Source: an uncultured delta proteobacterium (GTDB taxonomy: Bacteria; Desulfobacterota; BSN033; UBA1163). From it: a stretch of DNA of 64,000 nt. The position numbers and the translations under genes were made by a program. The number at the start of each line of letters is the position of its first letter. Within the stretch, counting starts at the first letter, position 1. This document shows, in pieces, positions 482-63,087 of this stretch. Under the pieces are notes generated by a model that saw only the letters and a program-made list of their open reading frames with translations, did no database searches and was not told where the DNA came from. The stretch spans positions 256,001 through 320,000 of the forward strand of contig CAWHBU010000003.1 in the NCBI GenBank assembly GCA_963827685.1, in the 5' to 3' direction.

Positions 482-519
482 CTTTCTTCGATCCTCCTTA
501 GTTTCTTTGTCTCCCCTCG

Positions 520-771
520 GAGACTGCGTCATGTTCATGCTTGGGGAAGTTACAGAAGGAATCCCGCCCTGCTGGGATCAGGCTCTTCACCTTTAGAATG
601 CGGTCATTTAGAGTTATGGGGAATCGACCTTCCTGTAATGCAAGCTTTCCACGGACCTGCAGACCAGTAGTTGACCGACAAAAGGTTTCCGCTCTAAAGC
701 TTCATCACCCGATCCCGGTAGGTCGGGATTCGGTCCGTATTCAGCCTCCACCATCATTATGACAGAGTTTA
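520..771 (-). mobile_element. MITE-like element with structured core, copy A
   Basis: Imperfect terminal inverted repeats (GAGACTGCGTCAT / ATGACAGAGTTTA), TCG at 517-519 and 772-774, long internal stems. Homologous to 34954-35228. Confidence 0.72.
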
Positions 772-799
772 TCGCGAGGGAGGAGGAATTCGTCGCTTC

Positions 800-32416: not shown

Positions 32417-33611
32417 ATGAAGAATGCCCTTTTTAGAGATGAGATCAAGGACCTCAAAAAAAGAGGGCTTTACAGGGAACTAAGAACCATCGAGGGGGAA
32501 CAGGACAGTTCCGTAGTCATGGATGGTAAAAGGGTTTTGATGTTCTCTTCAAACAACTACCTTGGTCTTGCTAACCATCCGGGGCTCAAAAAAGCATCCG
32601 TCGATGCCGCATTGCGTTACGGTACGGGGAGCGGTGCATCCAGACTCATTTCAGGAAACATGGGAATCCATCGAACCTTAGAGAAGGAATTAGCCCTGTT
32701 TAAAGGAACGGATAGGGTTCTCCTTTTTCAGCTCGGGTTATCATGCCAACGTAGGAACCATTTCCGCCCTTACAGGGGAGGGGGATTTGATCTTGAGCGA
32801 CGAGCTCAACCATGCAAGTATCGTCGATGGATGTAGGCTCAGTAGGGCAGAGATTAGGGTCTATCAACACGCCAACATGAACTCTCTCAAAGAGATTCTT
32901 CAGAGATCTTCAAGGTTCAAAAGAAGGTTAATCATTACGGACTCTGTCTTCAGCATGGATGGGGACATTGCGCCCCTTCCCGATATCGTTGATCTTGGCG
33001 AGAAGTACTCAGCCCTGGTGATGGTGGATGACGCGCATGGCACAGGCGTCTTGGGCGAAAAAGGAAGGGGGATCATTGAACACTTTGGCCTCGGGGGAAG
33101 GGTTGAGATACAGATGGGGACCTTGGGAAAGGCCCTTGGTTCTTTCGGCGCCTATGTTGCTGGGACTGAAGACCTGATCCAATATCTCACCAATAGAGCG
33201 AGGAGTCTTCTTTATACAACGGCGCTTCCCCCATCGGTATGCGGTGCTGCCTTAGCGGCCCTTAAGATCCTTGGAGAAAGGCCTGAATTGGTAAGTCAGC
33301 TAAGGAATAACGCCACGTATTTTAGAGAAGGAATGAGAGATTTGGGTTACCTGATTCCAGAAGGTGAGACGCCGATTGTTCCTCTGGTTCTCGGAGACCC
33401 CTTCCTGACTATGGAAATGGCTCGAAGCCTGTTTGATGAAGGAATATATGTTCAGGGAATCCGGCCTCCCACTGTTCCTGAGGGAACATCAAGGCTTCGA
33501 ATCACACTGATGGCCAGCCACACCAAAGAGCAACTGGACTTCAGCTTAAGGGCCTTTGAGAAGATAGGGAAAAAATGGATCACACAAAGAAAAAAGAGCT
33601 TGAGGATTTAG
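32417..33611 (+). CDS. bioF: 8-amino-7-oxononanoate synthase, apparent +1 frameshift in the T5 run near 32724-32728
   Basis: SNNYLGL and GASRL in ORF1; NHASIVDG, FSMDGD, DDAH, GTLGKA in ORF2. Removing one T gives LLFSSGYHAN. Confidence 0.93.
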
Positions 33612-34972
33612 ACCGTCATTTGATCTGGCACCCTTTCACTCAGATGAAAGACTATATGGAAGAAGTTCCTCTCATCGTCGAAAGAGGTGAAGGATCTTAC
33701 CTCGTTGATATCTACGGGAAAAAATACCTTGACGGGGTCTCTTCGCTATGGGTTAGCCTCCACGGACATAGAAAGAAAGAGATTGATGATGCCATCAGAA
33801 ATCAGCTCGATCAGGTGGCTCACTCAACACTTCTTGGAATCTCAAACGTTCCGGCCATTCACCTGGCCAAGGAACTCGTCGAAATTGCACCAAGCGGGTT
33901 AAGAAAGATTTTTTATTCGGACAACGGCTCGACCGCCGTTGAGATTGGACTCAAGATTGCTTTCCAATTCTGGAAGCAAAAGGGAGATGGGAAAAACAAA
34001 CATACCTTTCTATCCTTTACCAATGCCTATCACGGCGATACCATTGGCTCTGTCAGTCTGGGCGGGATCGATCTTTTCCATGAGACGTACGGCTCCCTGC
34101 TCTTTCCGGTCCATAGAGCCCCTTATCCTTACTGCTATCGGTGTCCTCTGAAGAGGTCCACTCCTTCCTGTGGGATGGAGTGTTTGAACAGGGTTGAAAA
34201 TATTTTGTCAACCCATCACGAGGAGATCGCCGCACTGGTCATTGAACCGATGATCCAAGGCGCAGCGGGAATGATCACTTCTCCAAAGAACTATCTGAAA
34301 GCGATAAGGGAGTTGACGAAAAAGTACGGTGTGCTCCTGATCGCTGATGAGGTAGCAACTGGTTTTGGAAGGACAGGAAGGATGTTCGCCTGTGAGCATG
34401 AGGCGATCTCCCCGGATATCCTCTGTCTCGCAAAGGGGATCACAGGAGGATATCTCCCTCTGGCAGCGACTTTAACAACAGAGGAGATTTTCAATGCCTT
34501 CCTTGGAGAATATGAAGAAAAGAAAACCTTCTTTCACGGTCACTCGTATACCGGAAATCCCCTGGCCTGCGCAGCCGCCGTGGCCAATTTAAGAGTGATG
34601 AAGGAAGAAAGGATCCTTGAAAAACTGCAAGGTAAGATTCAATTTCTATCGGAGGCTTTAAAGGAATATAGGAGACTCGAACACGTCGGGGACATTCGAC
34701 AACTTGGGATGATGGTTGGGATAGAACTCGTCGTGGATAAGGCCACTAAAGAAGAATACCCTTATGGGGATAAGATCGGGATCAGAGTGATTCAAGAGGC
34801 GAGGAGAAGGGGGCTCATCATGAGACCTCTTGGCAATGTCATCGTGCTCATGCCGCCATTGAGCATATCCCAGGACGAACTAAGCGAGATCCTTTCGATT
34901 ACCTATCATTCAATAAAAGCGGTCACCAGCCAGCCCTCCCCTCCCCCCTCTGAGAAACTGTGTAATAATTAA
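33575..34972 (+). CDS. bioA: adenosylmethionine-8-amino-7-oxononanoate aminotransferase
   Basis: IWHPFTQM, YHGDT, ADEVATGFGRTG, AKGITGG, FFHGHSYTGN. Confidence 0.96.
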   Translation: MDHTKKKELEDLDRHLIWHPFTQMKDYMEEVPLIVERGEGSYLVDIYGKKYLDGVSSLWVSLHGHRKKEIDDAIRNQLDQVAHSTLLGISNVPAIHLAKELVEIAPSGLRKIFYSDNGSTAVEIGLKIAFQFWKQKGDGKNKHTFLSFTNAYHGDTIGSVSLGGIDLFHETYGSLLFPVHRAPYPYCYRCPLKRSTPSCGMECLNRVENILSTHHEEIAALVIEPMIQGAAGMITSPKNYLKAIRELTKKYGVLLIADEVATGFGRTGRMFACEHEAISPDILCLAKGITGGYLPLAATLTTEEIFNAFLGEYEEKKTFFHGHSYTGNPLACAAAVANLRVMKEERILEKLQGKIQFLSEALKEYRRLEHVGDIRQLGMMVGIELVVDKATKEEYPYGDKIGIRVIQEARRRGLIMRPLGNVIVLMPPLSISQDELSEILSITYHSIKAVTSQPSPPPSEKLCNN

Positions 34973-35228
34973 CGAGGGACGACTTCCGTTACAAGACGGA
35001 ATAGGCGGTCAGGTGACGAAGCTTTAGACCTGCCTGCGCGAAGCCGCTTCGGCGAAGGCAGGGCGGAAACCTCTTATCGGTCAGCTACTGGGCCACAAAC
35101 CCATGAAAAGAAAACATTTGCAAGAAGGTCAATGACCTATAACTTCAAATAACCGCATTCTAAAGCTGAGGGGCCTGACCGCCTGTTTCGCCCGTATCTA
35201 CTCTCCATCATGTTTACGACACAGTCTC
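34954..35228 (+). mobile_element. MITE-like element with structured core, copy B, carrying a nested 34-bp palindrome (35029-35062)
   Basis: TIR GAAACTGTGTAATAA / TTACGACACAGTCTC, TGA at 34951-34953 and 35229-35231; homologous to 520-771. Confidence 0.75.
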
Positions 35229-35275
35229 TGAGGGGGATGGGGAGGGTGAGGGCCGGGGGATGATGGGTTACACAG

Positions 35276-36010
35276 ATGGGGAAAGGGGTTTTTGTCACAG
35301 GCACAGATACAGGCGTTGGGAAGACTGTCGTCACAGCGGGCCTTGTGAGTCTTTTGATCAAGGAGGGACTCGATGTCGGTGTGATGAAACCGATCGAAAC
35401 AGGGTGTCCTAAGAGAAATGGTAGACTCGTTCCAAGGGACGCCACCTTTCTCAAAGCGGTATCACGTTCCAAAGATGATCTATCCCTCATTAACCCTTAT
35501 AGGTTCTCTAAACCCTTGGCTCCCCTGATCGCCGCAGAGATCGATCACAAAGAGATTAAGATAGGAAAAATCTCCTCAGCTTATAAAAAGCTCAGAGAAA
35601 AGCACGATATCATTTTCGTTGAAGGGGCCGGCGGCCTCCTGGTCCCTCTTACAGGAAAATTAACGAATCTTGAGCTGATATTGGAACTGAACCTCCCGAT
35701 CATTGTGGTAGTCGGTTCAAAACTTGGGGCTATTAACCATACGCTCCTTACTCTCAACTGGGCAAGAAAAAAAGGGGTAAAGATCCTCGGCCTTTTAATC
35801 AATCAACCAAATTCCAAACCGGGTTTTAGAAAGAGTCTGGCCGAGAAGACAAACCCTAAGGTGATCCGGTCTTTTACGGAAGTGCCGATCCTTGGGGAGG
35901 TTCCCCATATTCCCTTAATTCTTAGACCTCCTATCTTCTCAAAGTCACGCTTGATGAATATTTTAGAAAGGGCCTTTGATCTTGAAAAGATTAGAGCCCA
36001 AATACTTTGA
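35276..36010 (+). CDS. bioD: dethiobiotin synthase
   Basis: TGTDTGVGKT, MKPIETG, VEGAGG, LGAINH. Confidence 0.96.
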   Translation: MGKGVFVTGTDTGVGKTVVTAGLVSLLIKEGLDVGVMKPIETGCPKRNGRLVPRDATFLKAVSRSKDDLSLINPYRFSKPLAPLIAAEIDHKEIKIGKISSAYKKLREKHDIIFVEGAGGLLVPLTGKLTNLELILELNLPIIVVVGSKLGAINHTLLTLNWARKKGVKILGLLINQPNSKPGFRKSLAEKTNPKVIRSFTEVPILGEVPHIPLILRPPIFSKSRLMNILERAFDLEKIRAQIL

Positions 36011-41223: not shown

Positions 41224-41368
41224 GACAAGAACCTAGGGAGCAGGTCTCAACATATGACATGGAAACTTATGTTTGACATAGAAATTTGAGAGGTGTATTC
41301 TTTGAACCAGGAAGTGCCAGAGCACGGAGAGACACCGAAAAACATCGGATAAATTTATGACATCTGAA
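41224..41368. repeat. ~155-bp repeat R, copy 1, interrupted by IS1182 and resuming at about 42994-43013
   Basis: Near-identical to 47132-47287. Confidence 0.9.
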
Positions 41369-42989
41369 CGGGCTGTTGCCCAAATGATACTTGCAACGAT
41401 TATACATTCGAGCTATAAGCATGGCAGCACAAATCTGGAATGGAGATATTGCCATGATGGGACAACAGACAGGAATTCAGCCGAAGATCTTCTATCATCA
41501 TATGAACCTGGAACAAAGGATTCCCCGGACACACCTTCTGAGAAGGATTCAAGAGCAGATTGACTTTAACTTCATCTATGCAGAGGTCAGAGACACCTAT
41601 GGGGGCAACGGGAATGTGTCCATTCCCCCTCCTGTAATCCTGAAGATGATGTTGCTGTTAGTTCTTTACAATGTTCGATCGGAACGAGAGTTAATGGAAA
41701 CGATCCCCATGCGTTTAGACTGGCTATGGTTTTTAGGGTACGACATAGACAGTGAGGTGCCGGATCACAGTGTTTTGAGTAAAGCCAGGGCGCGGTGGGG
41801 AGTGGAAGCGTTTAGGGGGTTCTTTGAGCGAATGGTGTGGCAATGTGTGGAGGCGGGGTTAGTGGACGGCAGAAAGATCTTTGTGGATTCGAGCCTGGTG
41901 GATGCGGATGCATCGAACAACTCCGTGATCGACACGCGATCGTTGAAGGTTCAACTCCAGGAGGGCTACAAGAAGCTGGAAGCACGATTAGAGGAAAAGA
42001 GCGAGAGCACGGATTCCTCCAGGAGATACGTTAAAGAGAACAGCCGATACATTTCAACGACCGATCCGGATGCATCGATAGTGAATCGTGGCAAGCCCAA
42101 ACTCTCCTATCAGGTACATCGGGCCGTGGATGAGCGGAGTGAAGTGATCACGGCGATCGAGACGACAACAGGAGATGTCAATGAAGCGCATGAGATGATT
42201 CCTCTGATAGAGAGCCACCGTTTAAATACAGGGATCAATGCGGATACGGTGGTGGCCGACAGCAAATACGGGACGATCGAGAACTTTTTGGCCTGTCATG
42301 ATAGAGGAGTAGAGGCCCACATGCCGGACTTGAGGGAAATCTCATTGAAGCGTACAGAAAAGCAAAATATCTTTGGGGAAGAGCGGTTTGAGTATGATCG
42401 GGAGAGTGACACCTATCGTTGTCCGGCTGGGCATCGGTTGAAGCCTAGATCATTACATATGAGTCGGCAAAGTAGAGATTACGCTGCACCCAAGAAGATT
42501 TGTGCAGCATGTGACTTAAGAGAGCAGTGTACTAGAAACAGATCAGGTCGGACAATTAAGCGACATCTGAGGCAGGAAGATCTAGACAGGATGCGAGAAG
42601 CGAGTCGATCGGCCAAAGCGAAGCGGGATATCAAAGTGAGGCAGCATTTGATGGAGCGTTCCTATGCCAGAGGGACGCGGTATGGATATGACCGGGCACG
42701 ATGGAGAGGGCTTTGGCGGGTGCAGATACAGGAATACCTGATCTCTGCTGTCCAGAACATTGAGGTTTTGCTTAGGTACGGATCTTACCTAAAGAGAAGT
42801 CCATCGGTGATGATGGAGCAGATCAAAGGGGCTGTGACAAGGGAGATAAGGTCCTTTTCAGATTTTAAGGAGCTAATGAACTCAAAAATTGGCCGAATGG
42901 TGCTATTTGGTTTTACTTACCCTCGGCTATCATTCATGGAAACTCAAACTGTCAGATATTTTTGAATTGGGCTTTTGAGCAACAGCCCG
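41369..42989 (+). mobile_element. IS1182-family insertion sequence
   Basis: TIR CGGGCTGTTGCCCAAA / TTTGAGCAACAGCCCG; flanks TGAA/TAAA; empty site visible in repeat copy 2. Confidence 0.9.
41454..42965 (+). CDS. IS1182-family transposase
   Basis: SIPP..LKM, SERELM, PDHSVLS, VDSS, TDPDA, ADSKYG, CPAG zinc motif. Confidence 0.92.
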   Translation: MMGQQTGIQPKIFYHHMNLEQRIPRTHLLRRIQEQIDFNFIYAEVRDTYGGNGNVSIPPPVILKMMLLLVLYNVRSERELMETIPMRLDWLWFLGYDIDSEVPDHSVLSKARARWGVEAFRGFFERMVWQCVEAGLVDGRKIFVDSSLVDADASNNSVIDTRSLKVQLQEGYKKLEARLEEKSESTDSSRRYVKENSRYISTTDPDASIVNRGKPKLSYQVHRAVDERSEVITAIETTTGDVNEAHEMIPLIESHRLNTGINADTVVADSKYGTIENFLACHDRGVEAHMPDLREISLKRTEKQNIFGEERFEYDRESDTYRCPAGHRLKPRSLHMSRQSRDYAAPKKICAACDLREQCTRNRSGRTIKRHLRQEDLDRMREASRSAKAKRDIKVRQHLMERSYARGTRYGYDRARWRGLWRVQIQEYLISAVQNIEVLLRYGSYLKRSPSVMMEQIKGAVTREIRSFSDFKELMNSKIGRMVLFGFTYPRLSFMETQTVRYF

Positions 42990-43054
42990 TAAAGATGTGA
43001 CCTATTACATTGTCCTCAATTGCCAGAGCATTTCTGGTGGGAAGGAGGATCATC

Positions 43055-49373: not shown

Positions 49374-49796
49374 CTTTTTTCTCCATTTTGATTAAAAATA
49401 CATCATGCCTTCCCCCAGTTCAAATTCAACCCTTTTGGTTGATTCATTGCAACTCATTGGCCCAGCCTGATAAACACTCTCTAATTACTTTAGACGTATT
49501 ATTCAGTTTTTTATTCAACATTCTTCATACCTCGCGCTGCTCAACATCAATAATGACATCCTTGGTAATCAGTTAATTCTACCTTTGGAAAGAAAAGGAT
49601 GTTTGCCTTTATTATTTAACCCAGTCTGGATCAGCTTCGGATTCTTCTGTTTCCTTTGATTCACCTCTTTCTTGCCTAATTATACGCAACAAGAATATCC
49701 TTTCTGAGCCGGCAAACAAATAGGCCGAGTCTACCGTTGGTTCATCCTTCGGCAGCTCGGCCATCTTCTTCCCAAAAGATCCGCCGCTTTCCTTCC

Positions 49797-49988
49797 CTAC
49801 CTCACGGAAGGTTTGGCTTTATCGAGTGAGCCTCTACAACTATTATCTAAAGAAATCTTAGATTTGTCAAACAAATAATTGGTGATTTCCTTGGTTATTC
49901 TCTGAGGGTTGTTCCTCCTTTCCGGTACCACCCCGATCAGTTCATAACCCTTTGGATCACGCCAGCAGTGAAGTTCGTAACCTACCAT
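49797..49988 (-). pseudogene. small hypothetical protein, possibly truncated
   Basis: GAGG RBS; plausible N-terminus (LIGVVPERRNNPQRITKE). Confidence 0.35.
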
Positions 49989-52441: not shown

Positions 52442-53486
52442 AATTATAAACCTCCTTCCTATTATGTCCCTTTCTTTTTCCTCTTCATCCCCTATCCACC
52501 ACCTTCACCATTTTCAAAAACCCCTCTTTGGCAAAAATCCCTTTCTCCACAAGCAACCCGGTAAGGGCTTCTTATTGGACTAACTGGGACACGATTTGTT
52601 TAGGATCAAGGGTGGTTGCTATAGAAGCCTCCGAAAAGATCATTTGGTTTGCTTTAAGAAATTTCAATAACTCCTTATGGAAGAGTTCCGGCGCTTCCAG
52701 ATGAGGGATATGTCCAACGTCAGGCAATTCAATCAAGGAAGAGTTTGCTATCAGTTTTGCAGTCCTTCTGCCTAATTCCGGGTATTGCCCCACCAAAGAG
52801 AGCAGTTCTTTTTTCACTTTTGCTTTACCGACAACCGTTCTGTCGGATTGCCCAATGACCAGAAGGGTCTTTGACCTGATATATGGAAATTCATAGCAAA
52901 CGGGTTGTTCGTAAATCATCTGGGATGTGAGTGCTGAAGACATGGCCAGCCTCGGGTATTCACCGCTTGCTTTCCACCTGAGAAAAACTTGAACATATTC
53001 TTCATAGTCAGGCTTCCATTTCACATAGTAACTTTTATGGTAATTCCGAATTCCTTCCTCTGTGGCGTTCAGTTCATTACGATATGCTTCTTCAATAGGA
53101 GTATAGGGCACATATATTCTATAATCTTCCAGACCAATGGGATTCTCAAGGATCAGATGGGTAACCGTCTCAGGATACATGAGGGTAAATCTTGTTGCCA
53201 GCATTCCCCCCATCGAGTGACCAACAACCGCAACTTGCGTTATTCCGAGGCTGTCCACAACTTTCTTGGTATTGATTGCTAATGAATGAAAGCTATAATG
53301 GATATTCGGTTTTGACGATTTCCCAAAACCGATCTGGTCAGGGACAATCACTCTGAAGCCGTTTTGAGACAAGATATGAATAGTCTCTTTCCAGTAGGCT
53401 CCGAAGAAATTCTTTCCGTGTAAAAGTAATACGGCCATGCCATTCGGGGTTCCTTCAGGTGGTATATCCATATAGGCCATTCTTAA

Positions 53487-55081
53487 CAGTCTGTTGAAAA
53501 ACTCTATTCAATAAATTCTTTGCTTTAATATATCACAATGGTAGAATATGGCAACTTTTGAATAAAGGAGGAGCCATTGTTAGGAGAAAACCCACGAAGT
53601 GAGCGCATGTTCTACTATGTCCGGATGGAAGATATCGTTCCAGAGAACCATCTTCTAAGATTGATCGACAGACATATCGATCTAAAATTCATTCGGGACA
53701 AAGTGAAGCATCTATACAGTCATACAGGGCGTCCATCGATTGATCCGGAGGTATTACTCAGGATGCTTTTAATTGGGTATCTGTATGGAATCACATCAGA
53801 GCGTCGCCTATGCGAAGAAGTACAGATGCACATTGGGTACAGGTGGTTTGTGGGCTTGAACCTTGAAGACAAGGTGCCAGATCATTCGACCTTCTCCAAG
53901 AATCGGCATGAGCGGTTTTCAGAGAGCGATCTATTTCAGAGAATCTTTGACGAGATTGTGAATCAATGTGTCTCTCAGGGGTTGTTAACAGGAAAGCATC
54001 TGACGGTGGACAGCACCTATGTACAAGCCAATGCGGCCTTAAAGAGTCTAGAACCAATAGTGGTGACCATGGGGACAGGAGAATACATAGAGAAATTAGA
54101 GAGAGAAAACCCTGTAACAGAAGAGCCTTGGGAGCCTGGGGACGACTATCCCCATCGGGGTCAGAAAATAAGCAATGGGACTCATCGGTCCAAGACCGAT
54201 CCGGATGCCCGTCTGGCAAGGAAATCGTTGAAAGCAAACACCCAACTTTATCATGGAGTGACCTATATCATGGACAACCGGAGCCGGATCATCGTAGGGG
54301 CGGATGTGGGAAAACCAGATCGGAAAACTGACTGCGAAAAGGCGTTGAAGCAGATACGAAGGATTCCATTTGCTTTTGGGATAAAGCCGGAGAGCTTAGG
54401 AGCAGATAAGGGGTACTCCACGGGAGAATTTATCAATGCACTGGTCAAAGAGAAGGTACAGCCTCACATTCCAATCATGGATTCTCGGAGTCAAAACGAT
54501 CGAGGGATCTACTCGATAGAACAATTTAGCTTTGATCCGGGTGAAAACCGGTTTCTCTGTCCGTCGGGGAAGGAGTTGAAATATTGGGGAATTCATAAAC
54601 CCAGTAAGCAGCATGTCTATAGGGCGAGGGCGAAGGATTGCAAAGTGTGTTCGAGGAAGGCGGAGTGTACGAGGGACAGGTCCAGATCACTCAGTTATCA
54701 CATTTATGAGGAGTTTATCAATCAAGCGAGGCAAATCAATCAAACAAGGGCTTATCGGATATCGCAGAGGATGAGGAAGAGGATTGAGGAGCTATTTGGA
54801 GAAGCAAAGGAGTGGATGGGACTGAGGAGGGCTAAATTCCGGAGGCGGAAGTTTATCAGAGAACAGGTATTAATGACGGCGACAGCGCAGAATATAAAAA
54901 GGATGGTAAAGCTGTTATCCAAAGGAGGATACACAAAGCAAGCCCAGGTGGCCCAACAGCTTGGGGAATCGTTTCTTTCAAAGACATTTTCTAAATTATT
55001 TGGTTTGATGACTCTTTTCAGGTTTCGAACTCAATATTTTCTTCAGGGTTGCTGATAAATGCTTAGTTTTTCAACAGACTG
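53487..55081 (+). mobile_element. IS1182-family insertion sequence
   Basis: Perfect TIR CAGTCTGTTGAAAAACT; TTAA duplicated at 53483-53486 and 55082-55085. Confidence 0.93.
53577..55055 (+). CDS. IS1182-family transposase
   Basis: GRPSIDP, SERRLC, PDHSTFS, VDST, TDPDA, ADKGY, RIEELFGEAK. Confidence 0.93.
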   Translation: MLGENPRSERMFYYVRMEDIVPENHLLRLIDRHIDLKFIRDKVKHLYSHTGRPSIDPEVLLRMLLIGYLYGITSERRLCEEVQMHIGYRWFVGLNLEDKVPDHSTFSKNRHERFSESDLFQRIFDEIVNQCVSQGLLTGKHLTVDSTYVQANAALKSLEPIVVTMGTGEYIEKLERENPVTEEPWEPGDDYPHRGQKISNGTHRSKTDPDARLARKSLKANTQLYHGVTYIMDNRSRIIVGADVGKPDRKTDCEKALKQIRRIPFAFGIKPESLGADKGYSTGEFINALVKEKVQPHIPIMDSRSQNDRGIYSIEQFSFDPGENRFLCPSGKELKYWGIHKPSKQHVYRARAKDCKVCSRKAECTRDRSRSLSYHIYEEFINQARQINQTRAYRISQRMRKRIEELFGEAKEWMGLRRAKFRRRKFIREQVLMTATAQNIKRMVKLLSKGGYTKQAQVAQQLGESFLSKTFSKLFGLMTLFRFRTQYFLQGC

Positions 55082-55335
55082 TTAAGTCCTGACCCTCTAT
55101 GGTAAGGGGAAGTAATTTTACCGGGTAGGGATAGTCATAATTTTCCATTGATATGGATAGGGGTATCGTCTCTTGAGCAATTGCGGTGAAGGGCAGTGAG
55201 AAGATCCAAATCAATAAGCCGTAACTCAACATTTTCGTTGACAAACTGACAAAAGCCTGTGTGGAACATTTCATGGTCGATCCCTTTCTTTAAAGCGCTT
55301 GATATATACTAGAATCTGTCAAACCGTTAGGGAAA

Positions 55336-56554: not shown

Positions 56555-56631
56555 TGGCGTCCCCAAGGGGATTCGAACCCCTGTTGCCGACGTGAAAGGC
56601 CGGTGTCCTTGGCCGACTAGACGATGGGGAC
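56555..56631 (-). tRNA. tRNA-Glu (TTC)
   Basis: GTCCCCATCGTCTAG...CTTTCAC...GGTTCGAATCC...GGGGACGCCA cloverleaf. Confidence 0.96.
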
Positions 56632-56722: not shown

Positions 56723-56798
56723 TGGTGGGCCGTGCGGGACTCGAACCCACGACTCTCTGCTTAAAAGGCAGATACTCTACCTCCTGAGTTAACGGCCC
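56723..56798 (-). tRNA. tRNA-Lys (TTT)
   Basis: GGGCCGTTAACTCAG...CTTTTAA...GGTTCGAGTCC...CGGCCCACCA. Confidence 0.96.
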
Positions 56799-63011: not shown

Positions 63012-63087
63012 GCGGGCATAGCTCAGTTGGTAGAGCATCGGCTTCCCAAGCCGAGGGTCGCGGGTCCGAACCCCGTTGCCCGCTCCA
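63012..63087 (+). tRNA. tRNA-Gly (CCC)
   Basis: GCGGGCATAGCTCAG...TTCCCAA...TGCCCGCTCCA cloverleaf; T-loop reads TCCGAAC. Confidence 0.93.

Follow-up and report, generated by a model that had tools for sequence, protein, structure and literature searches.

The question raised by this locus is what kind of sequence lies twice in the window (the whole 64,000-nt stretch of DNA analysed, from a metagenome-assembled genome of an uncultured delta proteobacterium), how it came to sit where it does and what its conserved fold may be for. An earlier note, made from the letters of the window, had proposed a mobile, non-coding inverted-repeat element with a structured, RNA-like core, inserted into the loops of hairpins.

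Two window copies at the centres of palindromes

Copy A, a 252-nt element of the subfamily termed group 2, occupies 520..771 on the minus strand, and copy B, 275 nt including a nested REP, occupies 34954..35228 on the plus strand; the features given below lie on these same strands. The two share 77% column identity in alignment, B being the longer because of a 34-nt palindrome at 35029-35062. The inverted ends of both are of the type GAGACTGTGTCGTAAT, diverged at the 5' end of A. The terminal inverted repeats of A are TAAACTCTGTCATAAT (5', 756..771) and ..AACATGACGCAGTCTC (3', 520..535), its 3' end reading ..GACGCAGTCTC, and those of B are GAAACTGTGTAATAAT (5', 34954..34969) and TTTACGACACAGTCTC (3', 35213..35228), its 3' end reading ..CGACACAGTCTC. 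A 3-bp target-site duplication (TSD) flanks each copy: CGA for A, at 772..774 on the 5' side and, as the same three nucleotides, at 517..519 on the 3' side, and TGA for B, at 34951..34953 on the left and 35229..35231 on the right. The inverted ends and the duplications that the earlier note described can thus both be read in the sequence, and so can the hairpin-loop location, since each copy is central in a C-rich/G-rich palindrome. For A the C-rich arm, cctcctccctcg, is at 775..786 (partner 511-516); for B the C-rich arm is at 34934..34950 and the G-rich arm at 35232..35252.

Inside these ends each copy is organised in the same way. In A the arms of the outer stem P1 lie at 707..731 (5') and 559..583 (3'), with boundaries drawn by eye. 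Between them are the purine-rich 5' side of the internal loop IL1 followed by P2 (GAAGCTTTAG), an A and P3 (GCGG) at 689..706, an interior with the conserved blocks AAACCTTTT and CCCCATAA and without conserved helices at 604..688, and, at 584..603, P3 (CCGC), ATT, P2 (CTAAAGGTGA) and the purine-rich loop. In B the 5' arm of P1 (34995..35013) leads to the IL1 side TGACGAA and the P2 5' arm GCTTTAGA (35014..35028). The nested 34-nt REP-like palindrome follows at the P2/P3 junction (35029..35062), then P3 (GCGG, 35063-66), the interior, P3' (CCGC, 35153-56), ATT and P2' (35159-66), together 35063..35166, and the IL1 side TGAGGGG with the 3' arm of P1 (35167..35195). As had been noticed, the outer stems of A and B differ in sequence and pair in both. 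The conserved strings listed at the same time stand in part: CTTTAGA/TCTAAAG, GCGG/CCGC and AACCT occur family-wide, but CGGTCARCTACTGG is confined to one subfamily.

Copy B lies between two ORFs on its own strand, at 33575-34972 (+, 465 aa) upstream and 35276-36010 (+) downstream. The 465-aa ORF runs through the C-rich palindrome arm and stops within the first 19 nt of copy B, which means that the C-terminal tail of this ORF was remodelled by the insertion.

Beyond the window pair, the search by BLASTN for more copies in the genome yielded four further full copies, a diverged one and a fragment, each of which lies in a similar palindrome. The TSDs of the full copies are CGA, TGA, CAA, CAA, CTT and CAA/CAG; that is, 3-bp repeats flank 6/6 full copies of the window subfamily, one of them imperfectly. 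Copies D and E are 95% alike and have unrelated flanks. The flanks of D are themselves a repeat, and D is bordered by CAA on both sides; in two other genomes the D-type target is found uninterrupted, as a ~105-nt palindrome with a single CAA at its apex. Comparison of copy D with this uninterrupted palindrome is direct evidence of insertion at a palindrome centre with a 3-bp duplication. The ~105-nt palindromic repeat that serves as the target has the ends CTAATACAAACG and the apex CCCCTCCCCCTCAAGGGGGGAGGG and is present in several genomes (L170, at G006:C2:145180-145480, L171 and L172; the flanks of copy D are at G000:C2:199109-199459, G000 being the genome of the window). The single-CAA empty target of D and the variable TSDs bear out the proposal of a mobile, non-coding inverted-repeat element with duplications at palindrome centres. 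It has what defines a MITE: terminal inverted repeats, a TSD with one copy in the empty site, short length (240-290 nt), many copies and no transposase gene, only spurious ORFs crossing the elements.

No precise empty site of copy A was found in the metagenome contigs aligned to the window. One contig, 93% identical, is devoid of the copy A region, 483-1261 being replaced by 181 other letters. In another, 97% identical, copy A bears an extra REP at the CTTTAGA/GCGG junction, so REP insertion at copy A is polymorphic in a metagenome strain. The 34-nt REP-like palindrome of copy B, CCTGCCTGCGCGAAGCCGCTTCGGCGAAGGCAGG, also has separate copies across the genome, where it is present 59 times at ≤4 mismatches. 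In cores it keeps to one position and one orientation, the CTTTAGA/GCGG junction, in 9/9 REP-bearing cores read. Insertion at the centres of palindromic repeats has in this way nested the palindromes, from outer palindrome to MITE shell to core to REP.

A second recurrent nesting site is seen in several cores, where an extra hairpin of ~40-50 nt (for example ..GCCGGCAAAAAA..CGGGCGATTTATCGCC) stands on the 5' side of the purine-rich loop. These cores are at C4:112923-113073, C2:1045021-1045177, C7:90050-90199, C6:444921-445069, C1:347889-348042, C10:35105-35224 and C7:106349-106500 of G000.

One core, several shells and a candidate transposase

A covariance model (R1) of the ~150-nt core was built from 19 unaltered copies of the own genome and used in searches that ran a profile HMM first. 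It matches copy A at 573-719 (105.2 bits, E 1.4e-22) and copy B at 35041-35183 (56.5 bits, a score lowered by the 34-nt insert). The earlier description of the element as two-copy holds for the window but not for the genome, in which R1 has 50 matches. Within the bacterial family the core is abundant, with at least 1,710 matches in 53/55 genomes and 21/21 genera, counted at E ≤ 0.001 with the best ≤56 candidates per genome scored. Outside it, R1 matched 0/13 genomes in the two other families of the class and 1/146 genomes in a phylum sample, the latter by a single 45-bit match. The window copies belong to a group of non-autonomous DNA transposons that is specific to this family and present in high copy number. 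Exact-motif matches fall in MAGs of uncultured Thermodesulfobacteriota, 'Syntrophaceae' and delta-proteobacteria; the multicopy sequences of Geobacter, followed as a lead from the available portions of papers, were dropped because the exact-motif matches belong to another lineage.

The suspicion that the element belongs to no named RNA family was upheld for Rfam 15. The whole window scanned at gathering scores gave only tRNAs and a riboswitch and left the element unmatched, the region around copy A (400-900) gave zero matches up to E = 10, and copy B was covered by the scan at gathering scores alone; no known self-cleaving ribozyme class was matched in those scans. The riboswitch is a c-di-GMP-I-GGC aptamer at 49747-49826 (-), scoring 66.3 bits (gathering score 59), and the three tRNA genes are at 56558-56631 (-), 56726-56798 (-) and 63012-63084 (+).

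Shells of at least seven kinds, each with inverted ends of its own, carry the same core. Besides the window type these include CAGAAACTGTGAAAAAAAT, GAAGGTGTGAAAAAAAT, ACTTTAGCGCYTTGAAA, ..ACCTTAACGTTGCAT.. and GTAATCCCTCAGT. A search with the end motif found a 254-nt subfamily with identical ends, other flanking parts and a homologous core, and the ends GAGACTGTGTCGYAAT / ATTRCGACACAGTCTC recur across the genome, on no fewer than 15 short elements. Three further short elements have the ends of the window copies and unrelated interiors. Two candidates for an empty shell were rejected as internal deletions: at C1:98237-98368 4 nt of core remain, and at C3:937773-937913 only the 5' half is missing.

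A core of another shell type, with ends GAAGGTGTGAAAAAAT.., lies 1.2 kb ahead of the window start (G000:C3:254621-254771, +), in a palindrome and with REP copies adjoining. Elsewhere in G000 two pairs of cores of different subfamilies, C2:572508-572658 (+) with C2:574387-574540 (-) and C6:344110-344262 with C6:345602-345752, each bracket a single gene in a composite-like arrangement, 1.3-1.8 kb apart; the enclosed genes are ordinary ones, not transposases. No conserved neighbouring gene was found at 27 own copies or at 86 loci of the own genome and its relatives (L008-L036, L082-L140). The 'ORFs' that recur near cores are the element itself or transporter paralogues, and an apparent locus common to several genomes was discarded as not collinear.

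The elements are mobilised in trans, by a transposase whose staggered cuts are 3 bp apart, and this may be a DDE enzyme of the IS1182/IS5 kind. The ends do resemble, as the earlier note had remarked, those of IS1182/DUF772-type insertion sequences of the genome (GAGACTGTGTCG.. against GAGCCTGTAGAAAAAG, ACAGTCTGTTGAAAAAC and ACGGGCTGTTGC). The motif ..GAGNCTGT.. is common to IS of 1,597, 1,624 and 1,813 bp with DUF772 and DDE_Tnp_1 domains, the match being partial. The expected autonomous IS with the same ends did not appear: no inverted pair 0.3-4 kb apart was found in the own genome. DUF772 transposases are present in 30/54 genomes of the family and in 2/8 and 3/5 of two sister families, and are missing in several genomes with 40-56 cores, though IS are often unassembled in MAGs. 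No pattern of co-occurrence of cores with DUF772 transposases was seen in the family and sister families.

Two full IS with DUF772 and DDE_Tnp_1 lie in the window, at 41368-42990 and 53486-55082; 14 and 6 full-length copies of the 525-aa and 497-aa transposase types are listed in the genome. Many copies of the 1,624-bp IS abut a common motif, GGGGTCAGGTCTC, which suggests a specific target. The genome also has 25 Y1_Tnp matches. Among its elements is an IS200-like one of ~545 bp with the end hairpins CCGCCCAGCTCTGCTGGGCGG and CCCCGCAGCTCTGCTGCGGGG, at G000:C4:636157-636519 and 17 more places (L175-L180), with 18 identical tnpA copies and a second type in 3 copies; 18/19 scorable elements are on the G-rich strand. 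The idea that the REP is an end of this element was ruled out, the IS200-like ends being other hairpins.

A fold kept on one strand and its orientation

From outside to inside the fold consists of P1, a symmetric 3x3 purine-rich loop (IL1), P2 (consensus aAAgCUUUAg / cUAAAGcUuu), a small asymmetric loop, P3 (GCGG/CCGC) and an interior of ~95 nt with the conserved blocks AACCUUU, UUACCCAUAA and AAAnaaCCGC. In the main covariation set, 84 distinct copies from the own and more than 20 other genomes, 92.7% of the pairing cells are paired (76.1 ± 0.6 when shuffled), 20/24 pairs have changed on both sides, and there are 313 compensatory cells (118 ± 7 when shuffled). The covariation score of 0.442 compares with 0.05-0.08 for slid registers. 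The same holds within one subfamily of 29 copies with a common shell: 94.4% pairing against 89.3 ± 0.5, 11 pairs changed on both sides against 5.5 ± 1.5, 33 compensatory cells against 9.2 ± 2.4 (0/500 shuffles as high) and a score of 0.235 against 0.04-0.08 for slid registers. The shuffles overstate significance because the alignments are model-fitted and the copies are kin, a weakness from which the slid-register control is free; the stems stand far above both controls, and the covariation claimed in the earlier note is therefore real.

Oppositions of G with U (GU+UG) number 158 overall and those of A with C (AC+CA) 31, and in P1, after collapse to 17 clusters, the counts are 44 and 14. This excess of G-U over A-C means that selection has preserved folding on one strand. 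Little of the excess is seen in P2 (13 vs 7) and P3 (3 vs 3), whose arms form almost perfect inverted repeats. The sense strand is the more stable by 1.4 kcal/mol on average and in 31/50 copies, a small gap. No shared helices were found in the interior by mutual information, summed base-pair probabilities or RNAalifold per subfamily.

IL1 is 3x3 in 81/84 distinct copies, and 68/81 of these have at least two G.A/A.G oppositions, a purine-purine character that is far more frequent than identity of the two sides, the pattern that a TSD would leave (25/81). In 24/81 copies GGA stands on both sides of the core, again like a TSD. In group 2 the middle pair of the loop changes from U-A to C-G, and is thus complementary, not identical. 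A kink-turn consists of tandem sheared G.A pairs beside a helix and a three-nucleotide bulge on one strand. Of the kink-turn-like loop proposed earlier the tandem G.A oppositions are there by sequence, but the loop is a symmetric 3x3 one and has no one-sided bulge.

In 40/49 own copies the strand that folds is the one opposite the G-rich (leading) strand (p = 9e-6), replication direction being taken from the GC skew of a MAG in 14 contigs (94.5% completeness, 8% contamination). The bias persists when the skew window is varied between 10 and 100 kb, and it is spread over 12 sequence clusters; copy A is among the 9 exceptions and copy B is typical. As expected of a leading strand, long ORFs run 1,447:715 towards the G-rich strand. 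In other genomes 38/46 copies have the same orientation, a figure that rests on local skew, is confounded with gene strand and comes from relatives that are not independent of one another. Between two leading-strand genes (called by a crude ORF-length rule), 29 elements run antisense to their neighbours and 6 sense; between two lagging-strand genes, 0 run antisense and 7 sense. This switch with gene strand (Fisher 6e-5) means that the bias tracks replication, not transcription, and points to a DNA-level, strand-specific process.

Other repeats of the genome behave differently from the cores (9:40). REPs outside cores are unbiased (24:24), the IS1182-like IS give 1:5, 8:6 and 4:1 (8:6 for IS525), and the IS200-like elements favour the G-rich strand by 18:1. 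A genome-wide orientation bias of IS200/IS605 in the same sense as the IS200-like elements here is described in the accessible parts of two papers (PMC3971601, PMC5027513), and a survey, in its accessible part, gives no significant replication bias for IS1182. The literature searched on bacterial MITEs reported no orientation bias of this kind, and titles and abstracts on miniature inverted-repeat elements in the syntrophic lineage gave nothing relevant.

What the fold may do

The reading preferred here, at close to an even chance, is that the copies form a family of nested MITEs which target palindromes and in which the fold, specific to one strand, probably works at the level of single-stranded DNA. 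The fold would be a substrate or a retention signal for transposition; alternatively, it would cause loss of the element when on an exposed lagging-strand template, and the idea that copies may be lost when the folding strand is so exposed is an attractive one. Orientation set by replication, the lack of any promoter-like pattern and the lack of interior helices favour a DNA-level role in cis, or an effect on survival, over a free RNA. Several points weigh against this explanation. The folding strand is mostly on the leading-strand template and so is less often single-stranded, and a model of the IS608 type, with the active strand on the lagging template, does not fit directly. Both tandem G.A loops and G-U pairs would suit an RNA just as well. 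The difference in stability between the strands is small, and the orientation counts depend on GC skew and a crude calling of genes. Nor was an IS with the same ends found in the genome, its three IS1182-like IS having similar but not identical ones; DUF772 transposases are missing from several genomes rich in cores, and IS1182 has no significant replication bias in the survey.

It is possible, though doubtful, that the core is instead a transcribed structured ncRNA riding on MITEs, with a putative protein or RNA partner bound through the hairpin, tandem G.A loop included, and through the conserved single-stranded blocks AACCUUU and UUACCCAUAA; the replication bias would then come from the mode of insertion of the transposase, not from the fold. 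Covariation and the G-U asymmetry would suit such an RNA, as would the conservation in sequence of loops and blocks across subfamilies and a purine-purine loop whose sides are identical in a minority of copies. There is a precedent in bcr1, described in the available text of PMC3184786 as ~155 bp long, flanked by direct repeats, transcribed and showing compensatory changes. However, simple consensus scans found 0 sites resembling a sigma-70 promoter or an intrinsic terminator at both window copies, the 95-nt interior is without conserved helices, both orientations relative to genes are found, and most copies, if transcribed in the sense direction, would run head-on to the fork, which is unusual for an expressed RNA gene. 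That the fold is without a function in its own right is unlikely. Palindromic insertions nested in palindrome centres would give a rod of themselves, with the symmetric loops as old TSDs, the 'covariation' as differing target hairpins together with concerted change of inner inverted repeats bound by transposase, and the orientation bias as survival, copies with the better-folding strand on the lagging-strand template being deleted. Nesting is indeed seen directly at two levels, P2 and P3 are almost perfect repeats with a small G-U excess, GGA flanks the core in a TSD-like way in some copies, one core is found in at least seven shells, and the DNA fold of the sense strand is the more stable by a little. 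But compensatory changes inside one subfamily with a common shell weaken a purely passive origin, the group-2 middle pair changes in a complementary way, the loop is purine-purine in many more copies than have identical sides, both candidate empty shells are internal deletions so that no clean one is left, and REPs are unbiased.

Movement as a single strand by a Y1/HUH transposase of the IS200/IS605 or RAYT type, as for REPINs or PATEs, is very improbable. The Y1_Tnp matches of the genome and a strand-specific fold in replication-oriented copies would agree with it, and REPIN hairpins too are kept through compensatory changes, according to the consulted sections of PMC3116915. It is disfavoured by the TSDs, variable 3-bp duplications that flank the copies and are single in the empty site, by an orientation opposite to that of the IS200-like elements of the same genome, and by the lack of any Y1 gene consistently adjoining the cores. 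IS200/IS605 transposition is not known to make target duplications.

Comparison with known systems sets the preferred reading, a palindrome-targeting MITE with a fold acting in DNA, in context. The likeness to bcr1 of the Bacillus cereus group is considerable in the available text of PMC3184786 and PMC6542083: a ~150-nt, non-coding, clade-restricted repeat in tens of copies per genome, with short direct-repeat flanks and a predicted fold kept by compensatory changes. However, bcr1 is there reported as transcribed and has TTTAT-type repeats, and it has no known sequence relation to the present element, which, unlike bcr1, has long inverted ends in several versions, targets palindrome centres and is oriented by replication. 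REPINs and REPs with RAYT are likewise high-copy hairpin repeats with compensatory changes, and their hairpin has been proposed to act in ssDNA or mRNA (PMC3116915, in the part available). REPINs differ in that they consist of paired REPs, are associated with a flanked RAYT gene and make no TSD, whereas the element here duplicates 3 bp of its target and has no gene linked to it, and the REP of this genome is unbiased in orientation (24:24); the fixed tetra- or pentanucleotide target without TSD of PATEs and REPINs is replaced here by variable 3-bp TSDs. IS200/IS605 elements, in the portions of the literature at hand, resemble the cores in that their DNA folds on a particular strand, in being coupled to the replication fork and in a bias of orientation across the genome. 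They are not known to have TSDs or terminal inverted repeats, and their bias is opposite in the same genome (18:1 vs 9:40), most cores not having the folding strand on the lagging-strand template.

Specific insertion into repeated extragenic palindromes is shared with IS1397, ISKpn1, IS621 and ISPpu9/10, among others, and the accessible part of PMC1525189 describes it for five IS families including IS5. Those IS are autonomous, whereas here the inserted unit is non-coding and palindromic and in its turn becomes a target for the next insertion. To IS1182/IS5-type elements (DUF772 + DDE_Tnp_1) the likeness lies in the end motif ..GAG(N)CTGT.. of three IS types of the genome and in the small TSD; the ends are similar, not identical, the partner IS was not found, and the survey cited above has, in the part consulted, no replication bias for IS1182.

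Structured, clade-restricted MITEs are already known. What is unusual in this family is the carriage of one conserved core in several shells with different ends, the insertion into the centres of palindromes in the manner of Russian dolls, and a bias in orientation (82%) that tracks replication and is opposite to that of IS200 in the same genome. The core may be a new cis-acting single-strand module that couples a cut-and-paste MITE to fork polarity, or an undescribed protein-binding RNA encoded in over 1,700 genomic copies, though a claim of that novelty is rather unlikely to hold; as a module in cis, one folding strand, kept through the history of the bacterial family, would decide the orientation of insertion or of survival. 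Should insertion or retention be governed by the fold, DDE-type transposition would be linked to the replication fork in a new way. If it is an RNA, it would be among the most abundant undescribed RNA motifs of a lineage known only from metagenomes. For the host family of uncultured sediment bacteria, with dozens of copies per genome, the elements occupy many intergenic regions and can alter the ends of genes, and annotators are advised to mask them.
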